Part shown: piece by piece, positions 1 through 52,059 of the stretch
Layout of the letters: each line of letters starts with the position of its first letter
How positions within the stretch are numbered: position 1 is the stretch's first letter
Source of the DNA: an uncultured Gammaproteobacteria bacterium
GTDB taxonomy: Bacteria; Patescibacteriota; Microgenomatia; Levybacterales; GWA1-39-11
Assembly (NCBI GenBank): GCA_964409875.1
Contig: CAYPEN010000001.1
Location: 1,313-65,312, forward strand
Length of the DNA stretch: 64,000 nt
Direction: 5' to 3'
Made by a program: the position numbers and the translations under genes
The notes under the pieces: model-generated
Database searches by the model: none
What the model was told of the DNA's origin: nothing
The model's input: only the letters and a program-made list of their open reading frames with translations

Positions 1-3000
1 TTGCAGCCGGTACCAATCCGACAGCATCAGTCAGTGCAACTTCAGGTTCAAATAATGGAAACGGAATTGTTATCGCCGGTGACGGTTCAATACAGTCCTT
101 AAGGAATAACACGTTAACACTTGGAGGTAATACAACAGGCAACATCACCATCAGCCCACAAAATGGAGCTGGAACGGTCACGGTCAATGGCACACTTGCA
201 GCAAAGACGAGTGGGGGTGCAACAATTGTCGTTGCTGCAAGCAACTCCTCGGCAAAAGGTAAAGCACAGGCTGACTATGTAGCAACAGGTACAAATGATG
301 ATGTAACTATCGAGTCGGCAATAGCCGCTCTCCCTGCAACTGGGGGGTCCGTGGTGTTATTGGATGGTACATACAATATCGGCAATGCTGCAGGAGACGG
401 AATTGATATTACTAAGTCGAACGTCTCAATCATAGGGTCTGGTAAGGCTACGATTCTGAAAAGACAAGGAGATACGGCTACAAATGATGGCGTTATTGCC
501 GCCACCTCAGTTTCACGTATAGCAATTGCTGATCTTGCGATAGACGGAACCAAGGCAACCTATACGGGCACACAAAATAGAGGTATTTATTTCAGTTCGG
601 CTGTTACTAATTCCCAAATCAGAAATACATACATTCACGACAATGACGGGACCGGTATTTATGTAGATTCATCAAGTAACAATAATACATTCAAAGATAA
701 TGACCTACAGTCTAACGGCGAGTACGGCGGTATTGTAATTGTCTCTTCAAATAGCAATATTATTTCGGGAAACAACCTGCAGTCCAATACTACGTATGGT
801 ATCTGGCTAGTCGCTTCAACAAATAACACGGTTACGGGTAATAATGTACAGTCAAACACCGGAACAGGTATCGAGATGTTCAACGGCGCCAACAATAACA
901 TCGTGACAGGGAATACATTGCAATCCAATACTCAAATCGGTATCTCTATTGATACAGCCAACAACAACAGCATAACGGGGAATAAGCTTTATGACAACAC
1001 CGGTAGCGGATCCAATTCATCAATCGTTCTTGCTACTGCCGACGCAAATACTATTGCTAATAACGACATTACGGATACAGCAGGAACGGGATATGCAATA
1101 AATATCTCAAACTCAGCAAGCGACAATAACTATGTGACAGGGAACCGTTATTCGGGGACAGGTGCGGCCAATATTTCAGATTCGGGTACAGGAACAATGT
1201 TAGCTTCGCAGCTTGCAAACAGCGGTAATGACCTTATTCTAAATGCAGCCCGGTATTTGGGTATTGGAACCGCAACACCCACCTCCGTTTTGAGTGTAGT
1301 GGGGGGCACTATGGGTGGTAATGCAGCTGTAATTCTCAACCAAACTGGTTCTTCCACTAATGATATTTTTGCCGCATCTTCATCGGGTACGACCAAATTC
1401 GTCATCAAAAATGATGGGACTGCTTCAACATCAGGAAATCTAGTTATCAATTCAACAGGTTCACTTCAAACCACAAATAACCAAACACTTACCCTTGGAG
1501 GGAGTTCCACAGGTGATATCGTTCTTAAGCCACGGAATGGGAGCGGTTTTGTGGGAATTGGTAATGCAAGTCCTGCCTATCCATTGGACCTTCTCTCTAC
1601 CACCAATCCGCAAGTCCGCTTCGGATATGATACTTCAAATTACATGACGCTGCAGATAGGTTCAAGCGGAGTAACAACCTTTGATGCGGTCGGGAGCGGA
1701 GCGGCATTCAACTTCAAAGATACGGTTTCGTTGGGTGTGTCAGGAGCTTCAAATGGGATTTTGCAATTTAATAATAGTGCTGGTGGAACAGCAGCAAGTA
1801 TTACTACTAACGCTTCAGGCGACTTAATTTTGCAGTCTTCAGGAGGAATTGTGAATTTGGGAGTAGGTTCGGGAGATATTACTATTGATCCCGGCACTAA
1901 TAATATAGTAGCCAATCTTACGTCAGGTAATTTCTATGGGCAGAAAAATGGAACAAGCCTTATCTCACTTTCTACATCAGGGACTCTTCCAGTTGCCTCC
2001 TTCTCCGGGACAACTTCTTTTGCAGGATTATTGGTTGATAACAGTGGGGTAGGCAATCTCTTCACCGCCTCAACCTCGGGTCTTACGAGGTTTACAATCA
2101 CTAATAATGGGACTGCTTCTTCATCAGCAGGGTTTACTATCGACGGAAATGGGGGAAATATTCAGTCAACACGAAACCAAAGTCTGACAATTGGTGGCGG
2201 CTCGACCGGGGAATTGACTATCGGTAGGACCTCGCAAAGGGTTTTTCTTCCCGGCTTTGATTGTTCGGGTAGCGGCAACGGAGGAAAACTTACGACTACC
2301 GCAGGCGGAGTCCTTACTTGTGCTGCCGATGGCGGAAGTAGCGGAGCAGCAGGTACTTGGACCCTGGATGGAACGAACGGCATTCACACTCCTATAAATA
2401 ATACAGCTGACCTTCTCGTTGGAGGGACTTCAACGCAGTCAGCCATGTTTAGTGTTTTGGGAATTGCAGCTGGTACCAATCCATCAGCATCTGTATCGGC
2501 CATCAATGGTGCAAATGCTAATAAGGGTATCTATATGGCAGGAGACGGGAGTTTGCAGAGTGTCCGCAACAACTTCCTCACCCTTGGAGGAAATACAACA
2601 GGAGATATTTATCTCAAGCCGCTGAACGGCGCAGGAATGGTGAGAATTATCCATGGCACTACCGGAACAGGTGGACTTATGCTAGGTGATTCAGAGACCG
2701 ATGCCACACAAAAGGCAGCACGTTTGAAGTCAATTCCATATAACAGTGCTTCCTCTCTTCCAATCTCAATGCTTATTGCTATCAATTCATCGACAAATAA
2801 CGTACTTAATATTGGGGGAGGTTCAAGCTCTGAGTATGCAGTAACCGATGTATATATTAAAACAGCTACCACTCAGACCACTACAGTAGGAACGACAAGA
2901 TTTTATGTTGGAGGAGCAAGCGGTTTTGTAGGAATCGGTGATACAAATACTTCTCCTGTTGCAAGGCTTGATATTTTAGATAATGCGACCGATATCAATG

Positions 3001-6000
3001 GGGAAAAACTGGTACTCAGGAGAACCGGGGCAGGAGATGTCGGTCTGTCATTCCAGCAGAATGGTATATCAGCATTCGGAATTGTTAATAGAAGTGGTTC
3101 TGGTAACGGTCTTGCATTTGTTGATAATTATTATGAAGGAAGCAATGGAACAGAAATTGCACGGTTCTATGCTTCATCAGGTGTCGGTATTGGAACGCTT
3201 GGCAATACTCCTGTTGCAACACTTGACGTAAGAGGAGTTTTTGCCAATTCAGGTACTCAGCCCGTTGCTTCATTCTCCGGAACAACTTCATTTGCCGGGC
3301 TTATAGTGGATAATAGTGGGGTAGGAGACCTCTTTACTGCCTCAACTTCAGGGTTAACGCGGTTTGTGCTTCAGAGTAATGGGGTTGCTTCAGCCTCCGG
3401 AGGATTTACCATCAACAATGCAGGGAGTCTTCAAACAACCAAAGGTCAAACCCTGACAATCGGTGGAAATTCAACAGGTGACATCTCATTTAAACCAGGA
3501 AATTCTTCAACAAGTCTGTACCTTGCCTCAACAGGGGCTATTGGGGTAAATGGCTCATTTGGGGCACTTGGCCAATGTCTTCTCTCAAATGGGGCAGGGG
3601 CGGCTGCTTCATGGGGAGGATGCGCGGCCGGTGCTGCGGGAGGATGGTTCAACCTCATCTCGTCTCAAGGAACAATTGTCCCTGTCAATCAGACCCTTGA
3701 TCTTCTCTGGGGAGGAAACTCGACCGCTTCTGCGGGCTTTAGAATTTCTGGAGCAACGAAGAACTATGGCACTGTTGCAGCCGCTTCCGTAAGCGCTAAT
3801 ACCTCATTTGCCGGCATGGTTATTGATAACCGTGGAACCGGAGAGCTGTTGACTGCCTCCTCATCAGGTCAGACACGCTTCACTATATATAACAGCGGGA
3901 ATGTAGTTATCGGAAATGGAGGCGACTCAGGATTTAGGCTTGATGTGAAAGGCTCTGTAAGGATAGGCAATAACACGACAACTGACGATATCGTGAAAGA
4001 CAGCTCCGTTGACTTTACTCAGTCGGGATATGCAATTACCACAAATGATAGCGTTAATACTGTTTCGACTTCAGAAAATCAAATCAAGCTTGTTACCGAC
4101 CTTATCGGGGCCGGAGCGTCGCTTACAGCGCCTGCCGCTGACCAGACAACAGGCACCAATGTGACGACCGGGTCTGTAGCCTTCCAGAGACCGGATAAAA
4201 AATTCGTCGTCTTTGTCGGCGGAGCCGCAACAAGCAAAATGTATGATCCGACAACAGGTACGTGGATTGCAGGTCCAAGTACTGCCGGTGCGGTATCCAT
4301 GGGTGCCGGTGCAAGGGCATTCCAGAGACAAAACGGGTCATTCCTGGTAATTCACGGCGGAGCGGCTACTAGTACAACTGTTTATTCCTCGGGTGGTTCT
4401 GCCAATTTGGGAACTGCTATTGCAGGTCCGGCGACAACAGCAGCAGTGGGAGCAGGCTCACAGATAATAAGGCGTCCCGATGGAAAAATTCTCGTTATCC
4501 ATGGAAATACCAGTACAACCTCTAGCGTTCATGACCCGGTTACCGCTACGGGTACGACTTCTTTAATTGGCACCTTTATTACAGGACCTGCAACAACGGG
4601 CAATGTGGTTGCTGGCTCATTTGTTTTCCAGCGGCCTGACGGAAAATGGATTTTGGGGCTTGGAGGAAGTACAACAACCAACCTCTATGACCCCTCTTCC
4701 TCAGGGGTCGGTGGTGGAGGCGCATTTTCAGCAGGGCCATCTCTTTCTGCAGGTGCTCCTGCAGCAGGAACACATGTTATTCAGCTTCCCGATGGTCGGT
4801 TCATGGTTCTTGTGGGTGGAAGCACGGCGACCCAGATATATGACTGGAAGTCTAATTCTTTCTCTGCCGGTAGTACGATGACTGTGACAATTGGTGCCGG
4901 CGCTCATTCTTTCCAGAGGTCTGACGGTAAGTGGGTTGTCGTAGCAGGAGGAAATTCGACAAGCCTTATGCTCTATGACCCAACGAGCGGAGCGGATGGA
5001 ACTTTCAGCAACTTAGCAAGCGGTTTGTCGGCAGCGGCAGGTGCGGGTGCTCTTACCTTCCAAAGACCGGACGGAAAATACATTGTAGTTCACGGAAATA
5101 CTGTCCAAACAACAACTCTCTATGATGCGGGGTGGAATACCACAGGAACTTGGACATCGGAGGACATTCTCAACACAAAGATTTCTACCTATTCGGCGAT
5201 GATTTGGTCGGCAAATCCACAGTCTGCGAATAACAATGCCCGGCTCGATTCTGAAACTATCAATATAGCCGTCAAGACAGGAGACACGCTTACTTCTCTT
5301 GGTAACAATCCATACAGGACTCTTCAGGATAGTGGTGACCTTATTAAGGCGTATGGAAACTCACAATACGCAAAGATTCAGGTTACGTTCACTGTCCCAA
5401 TTCGCTCATATCCCGGAGGAGCAACGGCCTATTTAGCTCAATCAAACATTTGGGACGGCGAGGGAGGTACTTTCCTTCGAAGAAGCTTTATTCAACCAAC
5501 AGTATTTAGTATGCGGATTCAAAATCCTCTTGTGAGTTATGGTGATCCGTCAGGTCAAGGAGATCCTGCTTTTGGAAGAAATTTTGCAACAGCCTCAGCT
5601 CAACTTGAGGGGGTGGGAACGGATAATTCAAACCGCTTGACACTTTTGACCCTCAGAAATCAACCAACCTCGACTGCCTCAGCAGGCATCATTATCGCCT
5701 CTGCATCGGCAAATCTTGGCGGAAATGCGGGTGCCGGTGCTCACACCATAGAGCGCAATAACGGGCAATTCCTTACGATACTTGGCGGCGGCACGACTAC
5801 AACACGCACATATGACTCTGATACGAATACTTGGTCGGCGGGACCCGATTTGCCGAATGCAGCAGGTGCCGGGGCCCATTCCTTCCTCCTTCCTGATGGA
5901 AGATTCTTCGTTGTATTGGGGAACACAACCAATAAGACTGCTATCTTTGACCCCCAGACAAGCCTGTTCTTAGCAGGACCAAACCTCTTTGGAAACGTAG

Positions 6001-19661: not shown

Positions 19662-20327
19662 ATGGCATATCCTGAGAACGAAGGACACGATATCCGACTT
19701 GGTGAAGGGAGAAACGCTGCATTTTATCGTCTGCGTGGGAGGTATGCTGAAGAAATGGAATCCATTTTACATAGCTCTTTTGGAGAAAATCTCATCACTG
19801 CAGAACGTATTTTTTCGATGTTCTTAAAGCGCGGCCATGTACCTCACCCAACACATCTTCTTAATGAAGAGGGAAAAGTTGAGCCAGAGTTATCATTTGG
19901 AATTGCCCTTCTTGCTTCAAAAGAGCTGGTCGGGAATAGGTTGGCGGCAATTGGAAGGGTTTTGGAGGCTGGTGTTGAAGAGCCCATTGCTTTACCTGTT
20001 ACCGATGATTTGCCTCAATTTACGACTCTTATGAGAAGCATGTTTCCGCCTGAAGCAGATGCCCAGGTAATGGGTATTTGCCAAAATGGGCTGCAAGACG
20101 GATGGAATACTGTTCTAAATCTTTTGGGGAGCCAAGACGTTCCATTGGCAATGTTTCCGAAGTCTTTAGGGCAACATTTAAAGAGGAAAACTGAGGAATT
20201 ATATCCTCACACCAGTGGCATCGTGCTTCCCACTGCAATTTCCGGGGTGCAGGCTCATTATGAATATAATTCGGAATTTGCTCTTCCCTATGTCTCGCTT
20301 ACTATCGAACCATCTAAAGCCGCCTGA
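19662..20327 (+). CDS. hypothetical protein
   Basis: 221-aa ORF with balanced composition. No recognisable motif. Confidence 0.45.
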   Translation: MAYPENEGHDIRLGEGRNAAFYRLRGRYAEEMESILHSSFGENLITAERIFSMFLKRGHVPHPTHLLNEEGKVEPELSFGIALLASKELVGNRLAAIGRVLEAGVEEPIALPVTDDLPQFTTLMRSMFPPEADAQVMGICQNGLQDGWNTVLNLLGSQDVPLAMFPKSLGQHLKRKTEELYPHTSGIVLPTAISGVQAHYEYNSEFALPYVSLTIEPSKAA

Positions 20328-20391
20328 ACTTAAAAATTAGAAATACGGTTCATATGACGAGAATGGCGCGTTCGCTTGTCCGCTATGCAGG

Positions 20392-20469
20392 TAAACAAGT
20401 TTGTTCTCGTCCCAAATTTACTTTGTAAATTTATGCCGAAAATAAAACAAGTTTGTTCTCGTCCCAAAA
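20392..20469. repeat. direct repeat aacaagtttgttctcgtcccaaa x2
   Basis: Two copies of a ~23-nt sequence about 55 nt apart, immediately 3' of tRNA-Tyr on the minus strand. Confidence 0.5.
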
Positions 20470-20484
20470 AACTACGTTTTTTGT

Positions 20485-20569
20485 GCCGAGAATAGGATTC
20501 GAACCTATGTAGCCCAAACGGGCGACAGATTTACAGTCTGTTACGATTGACCGCTCCGTCATCTCGGCA
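20485..20569 (-). tRNA. tRNA-Tyr (anticodon GTA), long variable arm
   Basis: Reverse complement GCCGAGA-TG-ACGG-AGCGGTCAAT-TCGT-A-ACAGA-CTGTAAA-TCTGT-CGCCCGTTTGGGCTACAT-ATAGG-TTCGAAT-CCTAT-TCTCGGC-A. 7-bp acceptor stem, GTA at positions 34-36, canonical TTCGAAT T-loop. 85 nt, CCA not encoded. Confidence 0.85.
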
Positions 20570-20705
20570 CTAACTCTTTGTTTTCGACGATTGATGGTTC
20601 TGCAAGGCAGAAGCATATGATTTGCTCATTTTAAACTATATTTCTACAATCAAACAAATCATACCGCATTAATCATCTCGGCACGTTTATATTTTACTAT
20701 AAATT

Positions 20706-20768
20706 TGAGCCCCGAGTGGGAATCACCGCTCAATTGTTAAATTGACGCACCCACGGCCTCGTTCTTAC
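20706..20768 (-). pseudogene. partial copy of the tRNA-Thr 3' half (anticodon loop to 3' end) with a 24-nt insertion in the T-loop
   Basis: gagccccgagtgggaatc + accgctcaattgttaaattgacgc + acccacggcctcgttcttac. Identical to the intact tRNA-Thr at 20830-20874 except that the 24-nt insert replaces gg. Similarity stops in the anticodon loop. Confidence 0.5.
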
Positions 20769-20829
20769 GATTGACGAAGTCAAACGCAAGAGAGAAACGA
20801 CTCATTAAAGTTATCTCATATTCTATTTG

Positions 20830-20901
20830 AGCCCCGAGTGGGAATCGGACCCACGGCCTCGTTCTTACCAAGAACGCGCTCTACCACTGAGCCATCAGGG
20901 C
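20830..20901 (-). tRNA. tRNA-Thr (anticodon GGT)
   Basis: Reverse complement GCCCTGA-TG-GCTC-AGTGGTA-GAGC-G-CGTTC-TTGGTAA-GAACG-AGGCC-GTGGG-TCCGATT-CCCAC-TCGGGGC-T. 72 nt. One G-U in the acceptor stem. The T-loop reads TCCGATT (C at position 55), which is atypical. Confidence 0.75.
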
Positions 20902-20936
20902 AAACTATAACGATGGTGAAAGTGGCAAGGTTTCCT

Positions 20937-21002
20937 TACCACTGAGCCATCAGGGCAAACGCAATGGATCAGTGTAGTGATCACTGAGCCATCAGGGCTA
21001 AC
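20937..21002 (-). repeat. two extra copies of the tRNA-Thr 5' end (acceptor strand plus D-arm start), each preceded by GTTT/GTTA
   Basis: taccactgagccatcagggcaaac (20937-20960) and cactgagccatcagggctaac (20982-21002) repeat the ccactgagccatcagggca of the intact gene (20883-20901). They lie 5' of it on the coding strand. Confidence 0.5.
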
Positions 21003-21119
21003 TACAAACAATTCTGTTTGAATTGAAATTTTACCAAGAAGAACCATTTTTTTAAAGTGGTTATACGTATTTCAACCAACGTATTGATAAATTTGAGCGT
21101 ATAATTTATAATTGACAAC

Positions 21120-21299
21120 ATGGCAAAAAAATCTAAAGGAACACGACTTACACTCGGGCTGCAATGTACCGTTTGCAAGAATGTGAATTACATAACGGAG
21201 AGAAATAAGCTCAATACGCCGGAAAAATTAAATCTCAAGAAGTTCTGTAATTTCTGTAAGAAAATTCAGGTACATAAAGAAAGAGAAAAACTTAAATAG
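21120..21299 (+). CDS. rpmG: 50S ribosomal protein L33
   Basis: 59 aa, not in the ORF track because it is under the length cutoff. MAKKSKGTRLTLGLQCTVCKNVNYITERNKLNTPEKLNLKKFCNFCKKIQVHKEREKLK, with two CxxC pairs and the conserved NTPE(K/R)L(E/N)LKK(F/Y)C core. Confidence 0.85.
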   Translation: MAKKSKGTRLTLGLQCTVCKNVNYITERNKLNTPEKLNLKKFCNFCKKIQVHKEREKLK

Positions 21300-21310
21300 T
21301 CCTCGACTTG

Positions 21311-21412
21311 AGCTTGAAGTCTTCGTTTCACTCGACTATAAGCAAGCTTGAAGTCTTCGTTTCACTCGACTATAAGCAAGCTTGAAGTCTTCGTTTCACT
21401 CGACTATAAGCT
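21311..21412. repeat. 34-nt perfect tandem repeat x3 (agcttgaagtcttcgtttcactcgactataagca)
   Basis: Three head-to-tail copies read directly from the sequence, immediately downstream of rpmG. Confidence 0.85.
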
Positions 21413-21536
21413 CAACACACCTGAGAAATTAAATTTGAAGAAGTTCTGCAATTTTTTGCAAAAAGATACAGACTCACAAAGAAAGAGAAAAGTTAAAGTG
21501 AGTCGTTTCTTCACTCCCATTCGGTCCTTACGCTAA
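21413..21536 (+). pseudogene. degraded duplicate of the rpmG 3' half
   Basis: Encodes LNTPEKLNLKKFCNFLQKDTDSQRKRKVK versus LNTPEKLNLKKFCNFCKKIQVHKEREKLK of the intact gene. The second Cys of the CxxC pair is lost. It is fused in frame to repeat-derived sequence (ORF 21348..21536). Confidence 0.5.
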
Positions 21537-21561
21537 GTCATTACTCATTATCATATGCGGA

Positions 21562-21585
21562 AGTTTTTTTAAAAAAACTTCCTGA
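21562..21585. terminator. stem-loop GGAAGTTTTTTT/AAAAAAACTTCC, member of a hairpin family
   Basis: Perfect palindrome followed by tgaaaagaggaagaatgtcttgg. Closely similar elements lie at 63470-63492 (with the same tail aaaagaggaagaaagtcatgg) and 43163-43183. Confidence 0.45.
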
Positions 21586-21645
21586 AAAGAGGAAGAATGT
21601 CTTGGCTCCGCTCCTATTCAGTCGCTTCGCTAGTCTTTCTTTGTT

Positions 21646-22434
21646 TTAAAATTCCAAAACATCCAACACCTCAACATACGGTCCTACTACATGGTCCATT
21701 TTAAATGGAGCATATACATCAAGAATTCCGAGGATAAATCCTCTTTTTCCACTATCAACCAAATTGCCAATAGCAGTACTTGCATTTGCCAATTCCGGTT
21801 CGCTTTCCAACATTTGCTCTTGAAATACGGCAGAATTAGTTTTGAACCTTATTTGAACCTCTTTCAATAATGGGTCAGAGTAATTGGCCACCATTCTTTC
21901 AGTAAGTGCTTTAGGGGTAATGGGAGTTTTGAGGATGCCCGGCTGTGTTGCGACCAATATGTTGTACTTCATGTCACTATTTTTCCGCGCGTCTCTATCG
22001 GTAATGAGGCTTTTGAAATAGGTGGCAACTGCATGTTCATTGGATGGAGGCAATTCAAGTCCCACGTGTTGATATTGGTTGGCAAGTAGATTTACTCCGA
22101 ATACGGCGCCATTCATATATTGAGCGCTTTGTTCTTCTGAAAGGTGTATTTCATTACGCAACTTACTCATGTGCTCTAAATAAGAAAATAGAGCGTTGTC
22201 ATTTCTTTGTTGTTTGTCTTTTTCTACCTCAAAATAATATGGTGAGCGTGATGTTACATAGGTGTACCAGTCAATAGAATCGCGGACTGCCTTCTCAGAA
22301 ATAGGAAATGTAAACATGTGTTGTAACTCAGGGGTTGGAAAACCTTGCTCAGACTCTATGCTCATGGTAAATAGTGTAGAGCATGTTAGGATTTTTTCAA
22401 GAGTTACCATTTTGTATCTTCTTTTGTATGTCAA
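21646..22434 (-). CDS. hypothetical protein
   Basis: 262-aa ORF. An alternative start MVTLEKIL at 22410 would shorten the overlap with glpX. No recognisable motif. Confidence 0.5.
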   Translation of the reverse strand: MTYKRRYKMVTLEKILTCSTLFTMSIESEQGFPTPELQHMFTFPISEKAVRDSIDWYTYVTSRSPYYFEVEKDKQQRNDNALFSYLEHMSKLRNEIHLSEEQSAQYMNGAVFGVNLLANQYQHVGLELPPSNEHAVATYFKSLITDRDARKNSDMKYNILVATQPGILKTPITPKALTERMVANYSDPLLKEVQIRFKTNSAVFQEQMLESEPELANASTAIGNLVDSGKRGFILGILDVYAPFKMDHVVGPYVEVLDVLEF

Positions 22435-22501
22435 ACTGACAAGCTCTTTCTGTCAGGATTCCGTCAAGATTGTAAGAAAACCTTCGCTTAAGATAACTTT
22501 T

Positions 22502-25948: not shown

Positions 25949-28900
25949 TCAATTTATCGGAATATAATTGTCCAAATCCTCTAAAGATACTTTCCCATCG
26001 TTATTAAAGTCAGCAGTCTTACCATTCCCGCTCAACTTTTCAGAACGCCATATCAAAAGGTCTGAATTGTTGACCTTATTATCACAGTTAGCATCTCCTT
26101 GAGCTTTCAGTGGGCACGATTGGGCGGTTTGAGCACCCTGTACACTGCTATATGCCGTGTTTTGTTTTTTCGCACAAACAACGCATCTGTCATCAAATAT
26201 CTTACATGCGGTACCTTTGTCCGGACAACTTCTGAATTCAGAAGAAGCTACACCTGATTCTACATCTATTCTTCTTTTCTCCATTTTGTCTCCGTTGCAT
26301 GTCCAGTAGTCATATTTCACGCCTGCAAAAGCTGCCGATACAAAAGTTTTTGTGGCATCATACACAAGTGCTACATCAGCAGGACTTATGATATATGTAG
26401 CAGTTCCAAAAATATGTTCAGAAACTTGTTGAGCAATTATTTTGTTAACTCCTTTTGATGCTAAACGTTCTTCTAGCTCATAACCCACCAACTGGGTATA
26501 CTGACCGTGGGAATAGCTAATTATGTCTTGTCTTGATGCTTCTTCAAAATCCCTATTAACAATTAGTTCGGCATAGCTTACACCAGTTTTATCTTTGATA
26601 TATTGGTATGCCGTATCAATGATTAAGTTTTTCAAACTGAATGGCATAGGGATATTCGTTCCATCACCGCAATAGAGATGTTCAATGGTCGTGTTATCAA
26701 CTACAATAGGATCTGCACATTTAACCTTTTGATCTATCTCAGTACACACTTTGTTTTCTTTCCCGCAGTCTTCTTCTTTTATGAATGGACCGGACAATAT
26801 ATTGTTTCTGCATGCGGCTGAACCCTTAGGATACCATCCGTCCTTATCGGCTATCATATTAACATAGTTCTTTCCATTTTCGCCCTGATTAATTCCGCTT
26901 GATGGGTCATCTGCGCGATTCGTTGGGGGATGGACAGTAACGTTTTCAAGAGGCCGGTCATTACATATTGCGACAAGACCCACTTGGGTACATACCTTGC
27001 CTTCTGCAGCACAATCTTTTAAAAATTTATTAAAGGTCCATTCTGTTTTTGGATTACCCGACGAATCTTTTTCACCTGTTTCAATAATTCCAAGGTTATA
27101 TATTTTGTTGCTATCATTTCCTGTCCCGCAATGATTTGTAGCATTTTCCCTTTCATCAATGTTTTTCTTATCATTCGTACTATTGTCAAGGCAAGTATAT
27201 GATTCGAAATTTCCTGCGCCGACCACCTTACACTCTTGCCCTTTTGCTTTACAGTCAATGGCATTAGGATCCAGTCTTGGTGGGTTGAGGAAATTAAATT
27301 TTTGGGTTGGGTCGTATTTAGCATTCCCAGAAGAGAGATTAAAAATAACATTATCAACGCAGGTCCAACCTTCGGATTTGAAGTAAATATATTGTTTTTC
27401 CGAGGGACCTGAAGCACCGGGAATTATGGGTTTTGGAACACAACACAACTGTGACGTTGTTGCGCAGCTAGTGGTTCCGGTGGTATAGACTTCCTCCGTA
27501 TCACTGCAACTTTGACTCAAGCCGTTAATACATCTTCCACCTTTTGACGAGCAGTCGATAGGAGCAGCTGCCTTGCAACATGCCACATCAAATCCTGAAG
27601 AATCAGAGCAATTTGTCCCTACCGTATTTTGCTGTGTTCCGGTGGTGCATGCATTAGCTAAGGTAGTAAGGCATTCATATCCGGTCCCGTATTTTTGGGC
27701 GCAAGTCGTCGAAGGGTTGGTTTGTGAAGTGGTAGATGCATTTGTCGCAGTAACTTGAGTATTACCTGCTTTACAGCACATCATTTGAAAACCTCCTGAA
27801 TTATCACAGTCGGTTCCGGTCGGGTCCTTTTGAATCCCTGCCTTGCATTCATCGGTTGATGCTATCACACATTGGTATCCACTACCGTATTTTTGAGCGC
27901 AGGTTGATGTTGGACTAGATTGGGAGGTCGTTGAAGTGTTCGAAGAAGAATTTGAAGGAGCTACTGTTGGTGCGGCTGCTTTACAGCATGCCATATCAAA
28001 TCCAGCTGTATCCGAGCAATCTGTTCCCACAGTATTTTGTTGTATACCAGATTGGCATTCAGTTGATGAAGTCGTAAGACATTGGTATCCAGCACCGTAT
28101 TTTTGGTCACAAGAGAGTAATGAGGTTGTCGGTGTTGGGGTTGGTTGGGAATAGGGTGTTGGTGTGGGTGCGGCAGCTTTGCAGCATGCTACATCAAATC
28201 CTGCTGTATCCGAGCAATTTGTCCCTACTGTGTTTTGTCGTGTGCCGGACTGGCATTCGGTAGCGGAAGTTGTCAGACATTGATATCCATATCCATATTT
28301 CTGGTCACAGGAGAGTAATGTATTTGCCGGAGTTGGAGTGGATTGATAATAAGGGGTTGGTGTCGGGGTCGCAGCCTTGCAACACGCGACCTGAAACCCT
28401 GAAGAATCAGAGCAATCTGTACCTACCGTGCTTTGTTTTATTCCCGACTGGCATTCGGTAGCGGAAGTTGTAAGACATTGGTATCCTGCACCGTATTTTT
28501 GGTCACAGGATGAAGTGACAGGCGGCGCACAGGATTCACCGGTACTGATAGGTCCAAAATATCCGTTGGGGTCAAGCGTACACCCCTGTGCATTACAGGC
28601 TTCTACATCATAGAAAATACTTAAATTAGGTGCAAAACCTGAAATCGAGAAATTGGGTTGTGAGGAGGAAATCTGTTGCTGCCCGTTGGTATAACTTCCC
28701 CAGCCGTAAATTAAATGATAAGAGGTAGCATTTGGAACGGGAGCTGCAGAGAAGGAAATTGAAATTTGATTATTAGAACAAGTTCTGTTGGCACCCATAA
28801 CTCTTGGTCCTTGTGGAGGTCCTGCAACAACTTTGCAGCACGCATATGCACCTCCTGTATTGCATGTTGTTCCTATGGCAGACTGTTGTAGGTTGGGTGG

Positions 28901-29362
28901 TGCGCAGGTAGATGAGAAAGCGTCAACACATTGGTACCCTGCACCGTATTTTTGGTCACACGTTTGAGAGGACATTTGGGGAGTTGGGGTGGGTGCATCA
29001 GGAGCAAAACAACACATTGATTCTTGTCCAATCCATTGAGTGCATGCTGCATCCCCGTCCGGAGATGAGTAATGGGTTGAACCTGCAGGACATTGCGAAA
29101 AGTAGGAGAGAGGAACACAACTATTTGTGCCTCCCGTCGGATAATTGGGACAGCCGCTTTCTGCCGCATGCTGGCGGATATCAACCTGTTGCTTGAGTAC
29201 AAAAACCGTAACCGGAATAGAAAGCGCTGCTATAGCCACCAGAACCAATATGGGGATGAAGCCTTTTGAATTAAAATTAAATAATTTCGCTTGTGATATA
29301 TTTCTCACAAAAAATGATAGCCCGGTTATCAATATAGTAGCAGTGTTTAGTGTGCTTGACAA
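25949..29362 (-). CDS. large secreted protein with seven or more tandem 6-Cys ~40-aa repeats and a C-terminal dockerin-like module
   Basis: 1137 aa. Signal anchor. Repeats CDQKYGAGYQCLTTSATECQSG(I/T)(K/Q)QNTVGT(D/N)CSD(S/T)(S/A)GF(Q/D)VACCKAA, separated by AAPTPTPY linkers. C-terminus KAQGDANCDNKVNNSDLLIWRSEK...ADFNNDGKVSLEDLDNY, the same module as the neighbouring gene. A 2-nt gap to that gene. Confidence 0.65.
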   Translation of the reverse strand: MSSTLNTATILITGLSFFVRNISQAKLFNFNSKGFIPILVLVAIAALSIPVTVFVLKQQVDIRQHAAESGCPNYPTGGTNSCVPLSYFSQCPAGSTHYSSPDGDAACTQWIGQESMCCFAPDAPTPTPQMSSQTCDQKYGAGYQCVDAFSSTCAPPNLQQSAIGTTCNTGGAYACCKVVAGPPQGPRVMGANRTCSNNQISISFSAAPVPNATSYHLIYGWGSYTNGQQQISSSQPNFSISGFAPNLSIFYDVEACNAQGCTLDPNGYFGPISTGESCAPPVTSSCDQKYGAGYQCLTTSATECQSGIKQSTVGTDCSDSSGFQVACCKAATPTPTPYYQSTPTPANTLLSCDQKYGYGYQCLTTSATECQSGTRQNTVGTNCSDTAGFDVACCKAAAPTPTPYSQPTPTPTTSLLSCDQKYGAGYQCLTTSSTECQSGIQQNTVGTDCSDTAGFDMACCKAAAPTVAPSNSSSNTSTTSQSSPTSTCAQKYGSGYQCVIASTDECKAGIQKDPTGTDCDNSGGFQMMCCKAGNTQVTATNASTTSQTNPSTTCAQKYGTGYECLTTLANACTTGTQQNTVGTNCSDSSGFDVACCKAAAPIDCSSKGGRCINGLSQSCSDTEEVYTTGTTSCATTSQLCCVPKPIIPGASGPSEKQYIYFKSEGWTCVDNVIFNLSSGNAKYDPTQKFNFLNPPRLDPNAIDCKAKGQECKVVGAGNFESYTCLDNSTNDKKNIDERENATNHCGTGNDSNKIYNLGIIETGEKDSSGNPKTEWTFNKFLKDCAAEGKVCTQVGLVAICNDRPLENVTVHPPTNRADDPSSGINQGENGKNYVNMIADKDGWYPKGSAACRNNILSGPFIKEEDCGKENKVCTEIDQKVKCADPIVVDNTTIEHLYCGDGTNIPMPFSLKNLIIDTAYQYIKDKTGVSYAELIVNRDFEEASRQDIISYSHGQYTQLVGYELEERLASKGVNKIIAQQVSEHIFGTATYIISPADVALVYDATKTFVSAAFAGVKYDYWTCNGDKMEKRRIDVESGVASSEFRSCPDKGTACKIFDDRCVVCAKKQNTAYSSVQGAQTAQSCPLKAQGDANCDNKVNNSDLLIWRSEKLSGNGKTADFNNDGKVSLEDLDNYIPIN

Positions 29363-30526: not shown

Positions 30527-30597
30527 AGGGCTGTGATGAAATGGTATCATAGAGGTCTCCAAAACCTCTTTTCAGAGTTCGAATCTCTGCGGCCCTG
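30527..30597 (+). tRNA. tRNA-Trp (anticodon CCA)
   Basis: AGGGCTG-TG-ATGA-AATGGTA-TCAT-A-GAGGT-CTCCAAA-ACCTC-TTTT-CAGAG-TTCGAAT-CTCTG-CGGCCCT-G. 71 nt. Anticodon loop CTCCAAA. One G-U in the acceptor stem. Confidence 0.8.
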
Positions 30598-30636
30598 CAG
30601 CGATTTTAGCCTCAAAAAATCTGTTATAATTTACGA

Positions 30637-31896: not shown

Positions 31897-32007
31897 ATTT
31901 GATTTTGTAAAATAGTAGTTCCTAACATAATCGCTCAAGCCCTGCAGCGAGTTCTGCCTTAAAATTGGATATAAGAGGAGCTTGAATCACTCAGATATAA
32001 TTTCTGC

Positions 32008-42329: not shown

Positions 42330-43079
42330 ATGGCAACAACAAAAACTGCAAAGAAGACTCTTGTCAAATCTTCAAAAGTAACTACAAAAAAAGCACCTGC
42401 AAAAGTTTTCCGCGCAAGAACTTCCGTTTCGTCAATGAAAGTTGCACCACAAAAGAAAAGTGCAACCGTTACAGACCTTCGCAATAAAGTATTAGACCCA
42501 AAAAATAGACGCTCACTCATTCTGGCAATTGTTGTTATTGTGTTGGCGCTTGTTGTGTTTTTCGGGAAAAGCCTTGTTGTTGCTGCAACCGTTAATGGAC
42601 AACCGATTTCACGGTTGGCAATAATTAAGGATTTGGAAACTCAAAGCGGTAAAGCGACGCTTGATTCAGTAATCACACGCACATTAGTGTATCAGGAGGC
42701 AAGCAAGAAAAATATATCGGTTACTGAGAAAGATATAGACAATGAAGTATCAAAAATCCAAAAACAATTCCAAGCACAAGGTCAGAACCTTGATGCATTG
42801 TTGGCAACACAGGGTCTAACAAAAGAAAGATTTCGGGATGAGGTAAAAGTTCAATTGTTGGTCACAAAAATTTTGGGAGACCAGGCAAAAGTAACCGATA
42901 AGGAATTTAACGATTTTCTTGAGAAAAATAAAGACCTCGTTGCCAACGAAAAAGACCAAGAAGCAGCAAAGAAAAGTCTTCGACAACAAATGGAACAACA
43001 AAAATTGGCCCAAAAATATCAAGAATGGATAGCAAACGTTAAGAAAAACGCTAAAATCAACTACTTCGTCAATTATTAG
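42330..43079 (+). CDS. SurA N-terminal-domain-like periplasmic chaperone-like protein (no PPIase domain)
   Basis: 249 aa. TM helix, then ATVNGQPISRLAIIKDLETQSGKATLDSVITRTLVYQEASKKNISVTEKDIDNEVSKIQKQF, a SurA_N-like pattern (NG..I........Q........L..LI...L..QEA.K..I.V). Confidence 0.55.
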   Translation: MATTKTAKKTLVKSSKVTTKKAPAKVFRARTSVSSMKVAPQKKSATVTDLRNKVLDPKNRRSLILAIVVIVLALVVFFGKSLVVAATVNGQPISRLAIIKDLETQSGKATLDSVITRTLVYQEASKKNISVTEKDIDNEVSKIQKQFQAQGQNLDALLATQGLTKERFRDEVKVQLLVTKILGDQAKVTDKEFNDFLEKNKDLVANEKDQEAAKKSLRQQMEQQKLAQKYQEWIANVKKNAKINYFVNY

Positions 43080-43082
43080 ATT

Positions 43083-43110
43083 GACGAAGCAAGCTCCGCT
43101 TACTTTGTGA
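43083..43110. repeat. 25-nt repeat acgaagcaagctccgcttactttgt with an internal hairpin (copy 1)
   Basis: First of three copies. The other two are tandem at 43283-43335. AAGCAAGC-TCC-GCTTACTT is a near-palindrome. Confidence 0.5.
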
Positions 43111-43162
43111 ACTATTGAAACGAACGAATGTGAGTGGAAAAAGCTTCTATACCTCTGTTCAG

Positions 43163-43183
43163 GAAGTTTTTCCAAAACTTCCG
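43163..43183. terminator. stem-loop GGAAGTTTT-TCC-AAAACTTCC after the 42330..43079 gene
   Basis: Perfect 9-bp stem. The stem sequence is the same as the hairpins at 21562 and 63470. Confidence 0.4.
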
Positions 43184-43282
43184 CATTCCATATTTTCAAG
43201 CTTACTAGATTAACAAAGCAAGGCAGAAATCCTCAGTTTCTACATCTTTCAAATAATTAAAATTCTGACTTACTTTGTCATT

Positions 43283-43335
43283 CACGAAGCAAGCTCCGCT
43301 TACTTTGTCATTCACGAAGCAAGCTCCGCTTACTT
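43283..43335. repeat. two tandem copies of the 25-nt repeat tcacgaagcaagctccgcttactttgt
   Basis: Read directly from the sequence. Confidence 0.6.
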
Positions 43336-49560: not shown

Positions 49561-50448
49561 TTAGAGGCTGAGGCGGAGCCCTGGGCTCATGGTAGACTTA
49601 AGCGTCACGGATGAGATTTTTTCGTTACCAACGCTTGAAAGAAAAGTTTTTATATTATCTTTGAGCTTGTTATCCTCAAAGCTTACTTTTCCGACAATGG
49701 CATGAATTATTGGGGCTTCACTTTCGGTTTTGAAACTGATTTGTCCGCCTGAAAGCTTTTTTACCGCTTCTTCAGGGTTTTCCGCAATTGTCCCATTTTT
49801 TGGATTTGGCATGAGCCCGCGGGGACCGAGAATCTTTGCGACCCGGGCAAGCTGCGGCATCATTTGGGGAGTTGCAACAAGCACATCAAAATTTATTTTT
49901 CCTTTGGCAACTTCAGCTAGTATTGCATCATCAGCGATTTTTATAACCAAAGTTTTTCCGGTCCCGTGTGGAAGGACAACTTGACCGCTGATTCCTTTTT
50001 CGCGGGTATTGATATGAAGCTCTACAGTTTCATCAAATTTTGATTTTTTGAACTTTTTAAGAGCTTCTAGCGCTTGGTCGAGTGAATAAGACTGAGTTTT
50101 TGAAACGAGCGTCTGGTTTTCTTTGTGTCTTTTTGATTCAACTTTGGCGTTAGCCTTTGCGAATTTTTCTTTTTTTGCTTTTTTCACCGGCTTTTCATCA
50201 ACAGGTTGGGCATCGGATTGTTTTTCTTCTTTTGCTTCTGCTGCATCTACTTTTGAAAGGTCCTCTGTTGCCTCAAGTTGTGCTTCAACAGCATCTTTTG
50301 CGACCGGTTCTTCAACCGTTTCCATTTCACCCTTTTCAGCCTTTTTTGCAGCCATCTTTTCAGCCTTTTTTGCTTCCCGTTTTGCTTTCAGTTTTGCCTC
50401 TTCCTCAGGGGAAGTTTCATCAAATGATTTAACTCTTATTTTACCCAT
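49561..50448 (-). CDS. rplA: 50S ribosomal protein L1 with about 110-aa K/E/A-rich N-terminal extension
   Basis: Core VELHINTREKG...LPHGTGKT...GPRGLMPNPKNGTI matches L1. The N-terminal region is low-complexity KKAEK/AKKEK. Confidence 0.85.
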   Translation of the reverse strand: MGKIRVKSFDETSPEEEAKLKAKREAKKAEKMAAKKAEKGEMETVEEPVAKDAVEAQLEATEDLSKVDAAEAKEEKQSDAQPVDEKPVKKAKKEKFAKANAKVESKRHKENQTLVSKTQSYSLDQALEALKKFKKSKFDETVELHINTREKGISGQVVLPHGTGKTLVIKIADDAILAEVAKGKINFDVLVATPQMMPQLARVAKILGPRGLMPNPKNGTIAENPEEAVKKLSGGQISFKTESEAPIIHAIVGKVSFEDNKLKDNIKTFLSSVGNEKISSVTLKSTMSPGLRLSL

Positions 50449-51165: not shown

Positions 51166-52059
51166 TTATATCTTCGAAACCTGAAGGAAGTCAAGCTCAA
51201 CGGGTGTTTCCCGTCCAAAAATTGAGACAAGTACTTTGACTTTCCCTTTTGCCTCATCAATTGACTCGACAGTTCCCAAAAAGTCTGAGAATGGTCCGTC
51301 TGTGATTTTGACTGCTTCTCCTTGAGTGAATTGCGCTTTGTAAACCGGTTCTTTTTGGCCTACGAATGCGACAATTGCCTGGACTTCATCATCTCTAATA
51401 GGAGTTGGTTTGTTCTGTGCACCTACAAATGAAGTAACACCTGGAGTGGTTCTCACCAAGACCCACGCTTCATCTGACAAATCCATGTTGACCAAAATGT
51501 ATCCGGGGAAGATTTTCTCCTTGATTGTTTCTTTTTTACCTCCACGGACTCGGATAGTGTCTCTCGTTGGAACAAGCGCGTCAAAAATTCTCTCTTCAAA
51601 TCCCATCGCCTGGACTCTTTGCATCAAGGTCTTTGCAACCTTGTTCTCGTGCCCGGAGTAGGTGTGGACGATATACCATTTTCCTCTATATTCTTTTTTG
51701 GGCGTAACGGGTGCTGGTGCGGGAGTTGCCTCTTCTTTGGCCGGCTCTTCCGCAGCTGCTTCCTCTATCATGTCCGTTGCATCTTCGGAAGTTTCCTCTG
51801 CACTTTCTTCGTTTGGGGCGGGGTCGACTACTTCGCTTTCTTCAATAGGCGCCTCAGGCGAATCCTGAATTTCATCAGCTACCGTTTCTTCAGCTTGATT
51901 TTCCTGAGTATCATCAGCCGGTACAGCTGATGCCAGTCCATCTTGCGATTCCGTGTCATCAGCTGGAACAGCTGATGCCATCATGTCATCCAGTGACATT
52001 TCGTCTGTATTATTTTGGTCTAATGTTTCCTCTTGTTTTAATTCGTCTTGTGTGTCCAT
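51166..52059 (-). CDS. nusG: transcription antiterminator NusG with about 120-aa acidic repeat-containing N-terminal extension
   Basis: NGN domain KWYIVHTYSGHENKV. KOW domain GEAVKITDGPFSDFLGTVESID. N-extension has a duplicated ASAVPADDT(E/Q) unit. Confidence 0.85.
   Translation of the reverse strand: MDTQDELKQEETLDQNNTDEMSLDDMMASAVPADDTESQDGLASAVPADDTQENQAEETVADEIQDSPEAPIEESEVVDPAPNEESAEETSEDATDMIEEAAAEEPAKEEATPAPAPVTPKKEYRGKWYIVHTYSGHENKVAKTLMQRVQAMGFEERIFDALVPTRDTIRVRGGKKETIKEKIFPGYILVNMDLSDEAWVLVRTTPGVTSFVGAQNKPTPIRDDEVQAIVAFVGQKEPVYKAQFTQGEAVKITDGPFSDFLGTVESIDEAKGKVKVLVSIFGRETPVELDFLQVSKI

Follow-up and report, generated by a model that had tools for sequence, protein, structure and literature searches.

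What left three tandem copies of a 34-nt unit and a second, start-less copy of the rpmG tail directly behind rpmG, the gene for ribosomal protein L33, in a stretch of Levybacteria DNA? The stretch (64,000 nt of contig CAYPEN010000001.1, henceforth the window) had earlier been described from its letters alone, and this sequence-only reading took the locus for the scar of a recent rearrangement or insertion that had duplicated the 3' part of rpmG and accounted for the gene's separation from secE-nusG-rplKA by about 30 kb. Having compared the locus with those of relatives (designated by L numbers), we retain the scar and not the link to the 30-kb separation. The structure is best read, with a probability of roughly 60%, as a non-functional recombination scar that arose by partial duplication and exchange with diverged alleles, and whose linker was amplified by slippage. 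It is probably harmless and neither a working element nor a gene, so that it should be annotated as a pseudogene fragment plus a short tandem repeat and not be called a gene. The parts on which this interpretation turns are the following.

21120–21299, plus strand: working rpmG (ribosomal protein L33, an open reading frame, ORF, of 59 aa), with both CxxC pairs present.
21300–21310, plus strand: linker head TCCTCGACTTG after the rpmG stop; the same type of flank lies 3' of rpmG in L002, L024 and L026.
21311–21412, plus strand: tandem array of 3 x 34 nt, unit AGCTTGAAGTCTTCGTTTCACTCGACTATAAGCA, found with Tandem Repeats Finder.
21406–21501, plus strand: remnant of the rpmG 3' half, codons 30–59 plus a TGA stop and no start codon.
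21452–21457, plus strand: run of six T with one extra T, a frameshift between the Cys codons of the second zinc pair.
21502–21535, plus strand: native-type rpmG 3' flank (…TCTTCACTCCCATTCGGTCCTTACGCTA), from alignment with L022 and L199.

The upstream copy completes the working rpmG, while the downstream copy has no start codon. As had been noticed, the latter is a copy of roughly codons 31–59; codons 30–59 proper run from 21408 to 21501, 201 nt 3' of the original and in the same orientation, and the hexamer ATAAGC is at once the last six bases of the array and the start of the remnant (codon 29/30). Remnant and working copy differ at 20 of 90 nt (22%; 78% identical), which amounts to 15 synonymous codons and a single replacement, V51T, at a position that is free to vary among relatives. 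Twenty random substitutions would produce a mean of 13.9 replacement codons, and a value of one or fewer was never reached in 20,000 trials. As the differences are nearly all synonymous, the remnant and the working 3' half must have diverged inside working genes, and the remnant is not, as had been described, the present 3' half duplicated and degraded. The same applies to the supposed loss of a Cys from the second zinc-ligand pair: the second Cys codon of that pair is intact, and it is one extra T that shifts the frame, the first frame reading KLNTPEKLNLKKFCNF and the frame after the extra T reading CKKIQTHKEREKLK up to the stop.

Two coding roles for the remnant were considered and rejected. 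A zinc-independent (C-minus) L33 paralogue does not start at codon 30 without a start codon, and both Cys codons are present; read-through or frameshift translation from rpmG would meet several in-frame stops in the array, and the frame relation of rpmG to remnant also differs between the window and L024. An exact look-up of the 62-aa ORF that spans the remnant returned no record. A metagenome scan with the 17-mer TCGACTTGAGCTWGAAG returned 120 stretches, none of which matched 20350–22500 (tRNAs, rpmG, p262) by BLAST; we therefore regard them as chance matches to a pattern that is too short.

Where the two tails come from is suggested by their distances to other alleles (90 nt per half, about 15 alleles). 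The first 29 codons of the working gene are 5/87 nt off L024, the nearest relative, and codons 30–59 are at least 18/90 nt off every collected allele except that of L002, which is identical there. By these discordant distances the working rpmG is a mosaic. The remnant is closest to the alleles of L024 (10/90) and L022 (12/90), and it is followed by the flank at 21502–21535, a sequence that stands directly 3' of the working rpmG in L022 and 3' of an rpmG-type tail in L199 (whose contig begins inside the tail). In allele and 3' flank alike the remnant agrees with what the nearest relatives have at the end of their working rpmG, and so it sits in native context; it looks like the displaced native tail of rpmG, in which case the working 3' half would be the imported part. 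The tail of the linker, GTCTTCGTTTCACTCGAC, is only loosely like the native flank GTCGTTTCTTCACTCCCA when read by eye; ATAAGC is shared at the junction. Within the gene, the window and L002 are separated by seven synonymous substitutions, all in codons 9–24 (21146–21203); a 350-nt aligned block holds 12 mismatches in total, with the rpmG 3' half identical and the upstream spacer mostly matching. These differences look like a second short exchange tract within rpmG.

The duplication itself is old. L024 and L026, Levybacteria metagenome-assembled genomes (MAGs) from separate assemblies, have the same architecture and the same junction (...CGACTAT|AAGCTCAA) with a single copy of the linker. As the junction is common to them, the partial duplication must predate their lineages, and only the 34-nt amplification is strain-specific; the ancestor shared with L024 and L026 already carried a partial head-to-tail rpmG duplication that started at codon 30 and extended about 40 nt beyond the stop. 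Both relatives also bear apparent marks of exchange. In L024, the first 23 nt of the remnant equal the window remnant and the remainder is 6/90 from the L014 allele, after which the sequence continues into a 46-nt second linker and a shorter third remnant, C (KKIQPHKEREKLK and a stop), as it does 3' of rpmG in L003. In L026, gene and remnant are identical over their first 55 nt and diverge after that. The chimera of L024 and the pattern of L026 are as would be expected of homologous exchange between misaligned or diverged copies. The frame has stayed open, with mostly third-position variation, in the remnants of L024 and L026 and in the remnant C of five lineages; in L028, remnant C is frameshifted.

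Other relatives do without the structure. The downstream gene of L002 is 98.4% identical to that of the window and its working 3' half is identical, and yet L002 has neither array nor remnant nor anything else of the roughly 310-nt block; also missing from it are two tRNA-Thr fragment units, which more distant relatives have kept. Its simplest reading is a deletion between short direct repeats. Because L002 manages without it, the remnant is dispensable. In both L002 and L022 the site is empty, rpmG being followed directly by the convergent gene.

The array begins 11 bases past the rpmG stop codon, and Tandem Repeats Finder reports a 34-nt unit in 3.0 copies with 100% matches (21311–21411), in agreement with the three perfect repeats that had been pointed out; the last base of the third unit, T for A, is the sole mismatch. 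A recurrence of the unit elsewhere had been proposed as a check, and there is none in the rest of the 64-kb window (0 matches expected by chance). The non-coding linker between the rpmG copies measures 106 nt in the window and about 40 nt in L024 and L026; a linker of roughly 40 nt is single-copy in L024, L026 and L002, and three 34-nt units occur, like the extra T of the remnant, in the window lineage only. Because these three relatives carry the linker once, the array is a recent and lineage-specific amplification of the linker of the old duplication, presumably through slipped-strand or unequal recombination. The claim of a recent event can thus be kept for the array, and has to be given up for the duplication junction, common as it is to L024 and L026. 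A CRISPR-like (clustered regularly interspaced short palindromic repeats) repeat-spacer array does not describe it, the units being contiguous without spacers and no cas family occurring among the neighbours; the sole Cas-like match is a PaaX-type Cas2-like domain in some relatives. L026 has an array of its own, of about 35-nt units (…CTTGGCTTCGCTAAGAACCTGCTTCGCAGAAC…), after its rpmG remnant at 4320–4445, within which the contig ends; it is a second, independent repeat expansion at the rpmG locus.

We propose the following course of events. It would have begun with an illegitimate or microhomology-mediated join that duplicated part of the rpmG tail head to tail. After that, homologous recombination would repeatedly have exchanged DNA with diverged alleles, the conserved NKLNTPEK-coding block and the remnants providing the homology: one such exchange, with the NKLNTPEK-coding block as crossover zone, may have replaced the 3' half of the working copy and left the downstream copy behind as a fossil of the native tail, and a similar one may have rewritten the remnant of L024. 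DNA uptake is the likely route by which DNA of a diverged relative came in. Slippage in the linker would then have given the three 34-nt units and, last, an extra T would have put the remnant out of frame.

Could the structure have been made by the assembler? Two strain alleles of the rpmG tail might have been stitched in series, or a repeat mis-expanded, the sequence being metagenome-assembled, perfect short tandem repeats being a known difficulty for assemblers and the count of three units being that of the assembly. Contigs L001 and L198 stem from other sequencing runs and match the window at 100% identity, and they stop just where a real array would stop them: L001, coming from the left, ends at 21340, and L198, coming from the right, begins at 21382. 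These ends fall where a k-mer graph is bound to branch once the 34-nt unit occurs two or more times. L198, which stands for three samples, contains the join of linker to remnant with the same extra T, and the join recurs in L024 and L026, MAGs of other assemblies. At the join the copies have no more than about 10 nt in common, which we judge too short for a k-mer overlap, and a frameshifted remnant cannot be any strain's only allele. Array and remnant are real, the array with at least two copies, and an artefact is scarcely credible. The structure breaks short-read assemblies at precisely this spot.

Nor does the structure mark the breakpoint of a large rearrangement that carried rpmG some 30 kb off from secE-nusG-rplKA and, in doing so, duplicated its 3' end. 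The geography that prompted this idea is correct: tRNA-Tyr (20483–20568) and tRNA-Thr (20829–20901), both on the minus strand, lie near rpmG, and nusG, rplK and rplA are far off on the opposite strand to rpmG (minus strand, 49.5–52.1 kb). Relatives also differ in how tRNA-Tyr and tRNA-Thr are oriented to rpmG, so small inversions do occur here. However, in none of the Levybacteria loci does nusG lie within 4 kb of rpmG, and the separation of the two genes is hence clade-wide. The frame of rhodanese ... rpmG ... PAP2 is kept across the close clade with or without remnants; L002 and L022 show the same context of tRNA-Thr, rpmG and downstream gene, in identical order, without the duplicate, which is the very finding that the sequence-only reading had named as its refutation; and the remnant stems from a diverged allele rather than from the gene as it now stands. 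We consider this origin extremely improbable. Two of the distant genes have unusual 5' parts: the rplA ORF (49561–50448, minus strand; 295 aa) seems extended at its N-terminus, its best-scoring L1 stretch covering only residues 180–289, and has 12-nt repeats in its 5' part (50332–50379), and the nusG ORF (51166–52059, minus strand; 297 aa) seems extended as well, its NusG domain starting at residue 127.

The remaining features of the locus lie on either side of this core.

21084–21112, plus strand: promoter-like site of rpmG, TTGATA-17-TATAAT, sigma-70-like with 11/12 matches.
21536–21605, no strand assigned: 70-nt insert with a palindrome and a terminator-like hairpin on the minus strand, present in L024 and absent from L022.
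21559–21582, no strand assigned: palindrome GGAAGTTTTTTTAAAAAAACTTCC, overlapping the terminator-like hairpin for the convergent minus-strand gene.
21606–21633, plus strand: second imperfect copy of the native flank, CTCCGCTCCTATTCAGTCGCTTCGCTAG, running into the end of the convergent gene.
21646–22410, minus strand: convergent gene for a 254-aa hypothetical protein, adjoining rpmG in the window, L002, L022, L024, L199 and L200.

By its sequence the promoter-like site is a near-consensus, putatively strong sigma-70-like promoter, and the product of rpmG is identical to a protein annotated in its collection as PF00471 (Ribosomal_L33). The hairpin that had been seen beyond the copy is there, as the palindrome of the 70-nt insert, which is bracketed by imperfect copies of the native flank. 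The 254-aa protein was considered as a hidden recombinase and set aside: it belongs to no recognisable family, having no Pfam or PDB match, no sign of a recombinase and only eight homologues, and its AlphaFold model has a mean pLDDT (predicted local distance difference test) of 42. An exact look-up found the 254-aa form on record and not a 262-aa form of the same gene. Elsewhere in the window, at 43069–43328, a 30-nt unit (CTTACTTTGTCATTCACGAAGCAAGCTCCG) that forms a hairpin between two genes occurs as a tandem pair, and a 70% copy of it lies 200 nt upstream; between the copies sits a hairpin (GGAAGTTTTTCCAAAACTTCC) like the one 3' of rpmG. Amplified hairpins of this small, intergenic kind may be widespread in the genome. 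At 25949–29362 (minus strand) a predicted 1137-aa surface protein contains 198-nt tandem coding repeats, each encoding a Cys-rich module (e.g. CDQKYG.GYQC), and the ORFs adjoining it have dockerin-like C-terminal sequences.

The window is not alone in carrying pieces of rpmG behind rpmG. Partial copies of the tail occur 3' of the gene in about 11 of 55 related loci, and a DNA-level test of each locus against its own allele found them at 6 of 55 rpmG loci compared to 5 of 418 control ORFs. Their start points differ (codons 30, about 35, about 42 and about 47–50), and the interval between rpmG and PAP2 holds 0 to 3 genes, differing between relatives. In L032, a 413-aa minus-strand ORF (putatively an FBPase, to judge from its position) lies between near-identical 41-nt repeats of the rpmG tail, each ending at the stop codon; in L006, such repeats of 26–30 nt, again ending at the stop codon, flank a DUF3179 gene. 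The 3' side of rpmG is a recombination hot spot. Two further genes were met in these surveys: in L025, between PAP2 and the rpmG remnant, an ORF of 464 aa whose sequence has LAGLIDADG-like motifs (2727–4121, minus strand; Pfam LAGLIDADG_3 at E = 0.009, short of the cutoff), and a GIY-YIG gene just 3' of tRNA-Trp in L014 (6197–6448). With these two genes, involvement of homing endonucleases at rpmG and tRNA-Trp is possible.

The neighbouring tRNA genes show a related phenomenon. On the minus strand of the window (20673–21002), tRNA-Thr is surrounded by partial copies of itself: upstream, positions 1–17 (20982–20998) and 1–20 (20937–20956); downstream, positions 34–53 (20749–20768) and 56–73 (20707–20724), with a 24-nt insert between them, in the T-loop. 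Short pieces of tRNA-Tyr are joined to pieces of tRNA-Thr at microhomology (GTCAATCGTAA|GAACG). In the relatives, 30 of 129 tRNAs are accompanied by such copies, which break off in the same loops and are 100% identical to the resident allele. The partial copies of tRNA-Thr, -Tyr and -Trp end in the D-, anticodon and T-loops, with 5' pieces upstream and 3' pieces downstream, and they match the resident allele in each lineage although the alleles differ between lineages. The upstream 5' pieces form long hairpins (window 20906–20960; L014:3300–3356; L025:2255–2300; L044:3530–3696) in which tRNA positions 1–20 and an imperfect complement of positions 6–19 enclose a small inner hairpin (such as TAAGG-AAA-CCTTG or TAAGC-ATA-GCTTG), with a conserved T.G pair; L044 has three such units, one every 55 nt, before tRNA-Tyr, each with a terminal TATAAT-like box. 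A 36-nt copy (78%) of the tRNA-Trp 3' end and trailer (30582–30617 versus 31929–31964) lies 1.35 kb downstream, after genes of the HIT family and for inositol monophosphatase, so that an islet is bracketed by the tRNA-end repeat. Just 3' of tRNA-Tyr there is a perfect 24-nt direct repeat (AAACAAGTTTGTTCTCGTCCCAAA, 20393–20416 and 20445–20468, 28-nt spacer), which is also found in L001. Ectopic CRISPR-type spacer insertion, which the two 24-nt repeats and spacers of 28–31 nt had brought to mind for the tRNA fragments, was set aside: the spacers are conserved across lineages and partly complementary to the tRNA piece, and repeat lengths differ elsewhere. Among the close-clade loci (L003, L006, L014, L022–L032 and the window), the orientations of tRNA-Tyr/tRNA-Thr relative to rpmG are +/+ in seven, -/+ in four, +/- in one and -/- in two; as all four combinations occur, single tRNA genes have been inverted repeatedly.

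These observations bear on a mobile origin: a site-specific element with an rpmG 3' end of its own would have integrated into the gene and pushed the native tail aside, later decaying to the 40-nt linker or else relying on a recombinase that acts in trans, and stacked remnants would record serial integrations. The rpmG 3' end is a documented target of tyrosine integrases (PMC4701971) and partial tRNA copies in prokaryotes usually stem from element integration (PMC9897764). Direct repeats of the rpmG 3' end (78% identical) do bracket the intervening DNA in the window; L032 and L006 have cargo between near-identical tail repeats that run up to the stop codon; the tRNA-Trp 3' end is repeated past the HIT and inositol-monophosphatase islet; and tRNA fragments end in the anticodon loop and the T-loop, the classical places of crossover. 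Against this, the DNA between the repeats has no genes of its own, being 106 nt of non-coding sequence in the window and mostly just 22–47 nt, conserved across lineages, elsewhere; the start points of the remnants vary; and the repeats of the window are 22% different, which is not what a recent attL/attR pair would look like. No integrase or recombinase was found in any neighbourhood examined, that is, no Pfam family of this kind in the window from about 10 kb upstream to 4.5 kb downstream, nor any recombinase in the scanned neighbourhoods of relatives L003–L021 and one ORF each of L025 and L032. No viral contig encodes a relative of rpmG or carries a fragment of it, and there is consequently no candidate phage attachment site. 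As expected of a tandem duplication, by comparison, the copies lie head to tail in the same orientation and the second is followed by the original, L022-type flank. An attachment-site remnant is the main rival and, in our estimate, an unlikely source of the structure.

It is very unlikely that the partial copies are maintained for a function, be it as homology handles for swaps of islets, as silent cassettes or as structured leader and trailer RNAs. Remnants that stay open with synonymous variation in several lineages would fit such a role, as would tRNA fragments 100% identical to the resident allele lineage by lineage and the long hairpins of the 5' fragments with their conserved T.G pair and compensatory changes in the inner hairpins, a selection signal that fold-back duplication would mimic. 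On the other hand, L002 and L022 have no rpmG remnant and L002 no tRNA-Thr 5' fragments; the window remnant and remnant C of L028 are frameshifted; and the remnant has no start codon and a frame relative to rpmG that differs between genomes. In the Rfam search only tRNAs reached threshold, with nothing credible in 20300–21700 even at E up to 5, and the fold of 21290–21640 is only marginally better than shuffles (z = -2.0).

Quite unlikely, too, is the idea that the partial self-copies of rpmG and tRNA genes in Levybacteria are the footprint of an active, undescribed process without a local integrase gene. The rpmG tail and tRNA loops may be the targets of a recombinase or nuclease, or a system of homology handles may be at work; either would swap small gene islets and flip single tRNA genes. 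Hints of it are the loop-precise ends, the tracking of the resident allele, the open frames and the flanking of cargo in some genomes. If systematic, the loop-bounded tRNA copies and the re-orientation of tRNA genes would point to an unrecognised recombination activity in the group.

Several points weigh against the recombination scar that we prefer. No donor of the working 3' half was matched among the about 15 collected alleles, and the direction of events is deduced from few sites, with 90 nt per half and that same number of alleles. The first duplication could have been a tandem duplication or an insertion of foreign DNA, and the cargo flanked by near-identical repeats in L006 and L032 looks like the product of site-specific integration. 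The tRNA copies have their boundaries in loops, which is unlike what random recombination predicts. Finally, intact open remnants are awkward for a neutral fossil, and we would explain them by repeated recombinational overwriting. Taken together, the feature is real and of an ordinary kind, and it is more telling as a marker of frequent exchange among bacteria of the candidate phyla radiation (CPR): it provides sequence-level evidence of DNA exchange between uncultured, small-genome CPR bacteria and diverged relatives, both within a ribosomal protein gene and next to tRNA genes, and it identifies the rpmG-PAP2 interval as a recurrent site of gene gain and loss.

Among known systems, homology-facilitated illegitimate recombination occurs in the natural transformation of Acinetobacter and Streptococcus pneumoniae. 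In this process, a conserved gene serves as anchor and a join at microhomology adds DNA, which can duplicate part of the anchor; it would fit the mosaic alleles and the finding of no recombinase, although the junction here shares only ATAAGC. Fungal mitochondria contain hybrid genes with a displaced native 3' end, such as the atp6 gene of Allomyces with its endonuclease ORF. As proposed for the rpmG locus, a foreign 3' part there completes the gene and the native 3' part persists downstream, but that insert carries a homing endonuclease gene and there is none between the rpmG copies. Integrative and conjugative or mobilizable elements (ICE/IME) of Streptococcus use tyrosine integrases that target the rpmG 3' end and leave attL/attR direct repeats (PMC4701971); the same end of the same gene is involved, a displaced copy of the tail follows the intact gene, the site is empty in relatives and the adjacent gene content is variable. 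As opposed to these elements, the Levybacteria locus has no integrase or element genes and 40–108 nt of non-coding DNA between repeats, its repeats are 22% diverged, the remnants begin at varying points, and in relatives they are stacked. Partial copies of tRNA genes left by integrated elements in prokaryotes (PMC9897764) likewise combine a complete tRNA gene with a direct partial copy, and the two-gene islet at tRNA-Trp lies between such copies; here, most copies are 15–60 nt from the gene and not kilobases away, 5' pieces occur upstream too, and some are interrupted in the T-loop or are chimeras of Tyr and Thr. The array, for its part, resembles the short tandem repeats expanded by slipped-strand mispairing, with which it shares perfect head-to-tail units, a non-coding location and a difference of one versus three copies between close relatives; nothing about it is unusual in this comparison, its unit being the linker of an older duplication.

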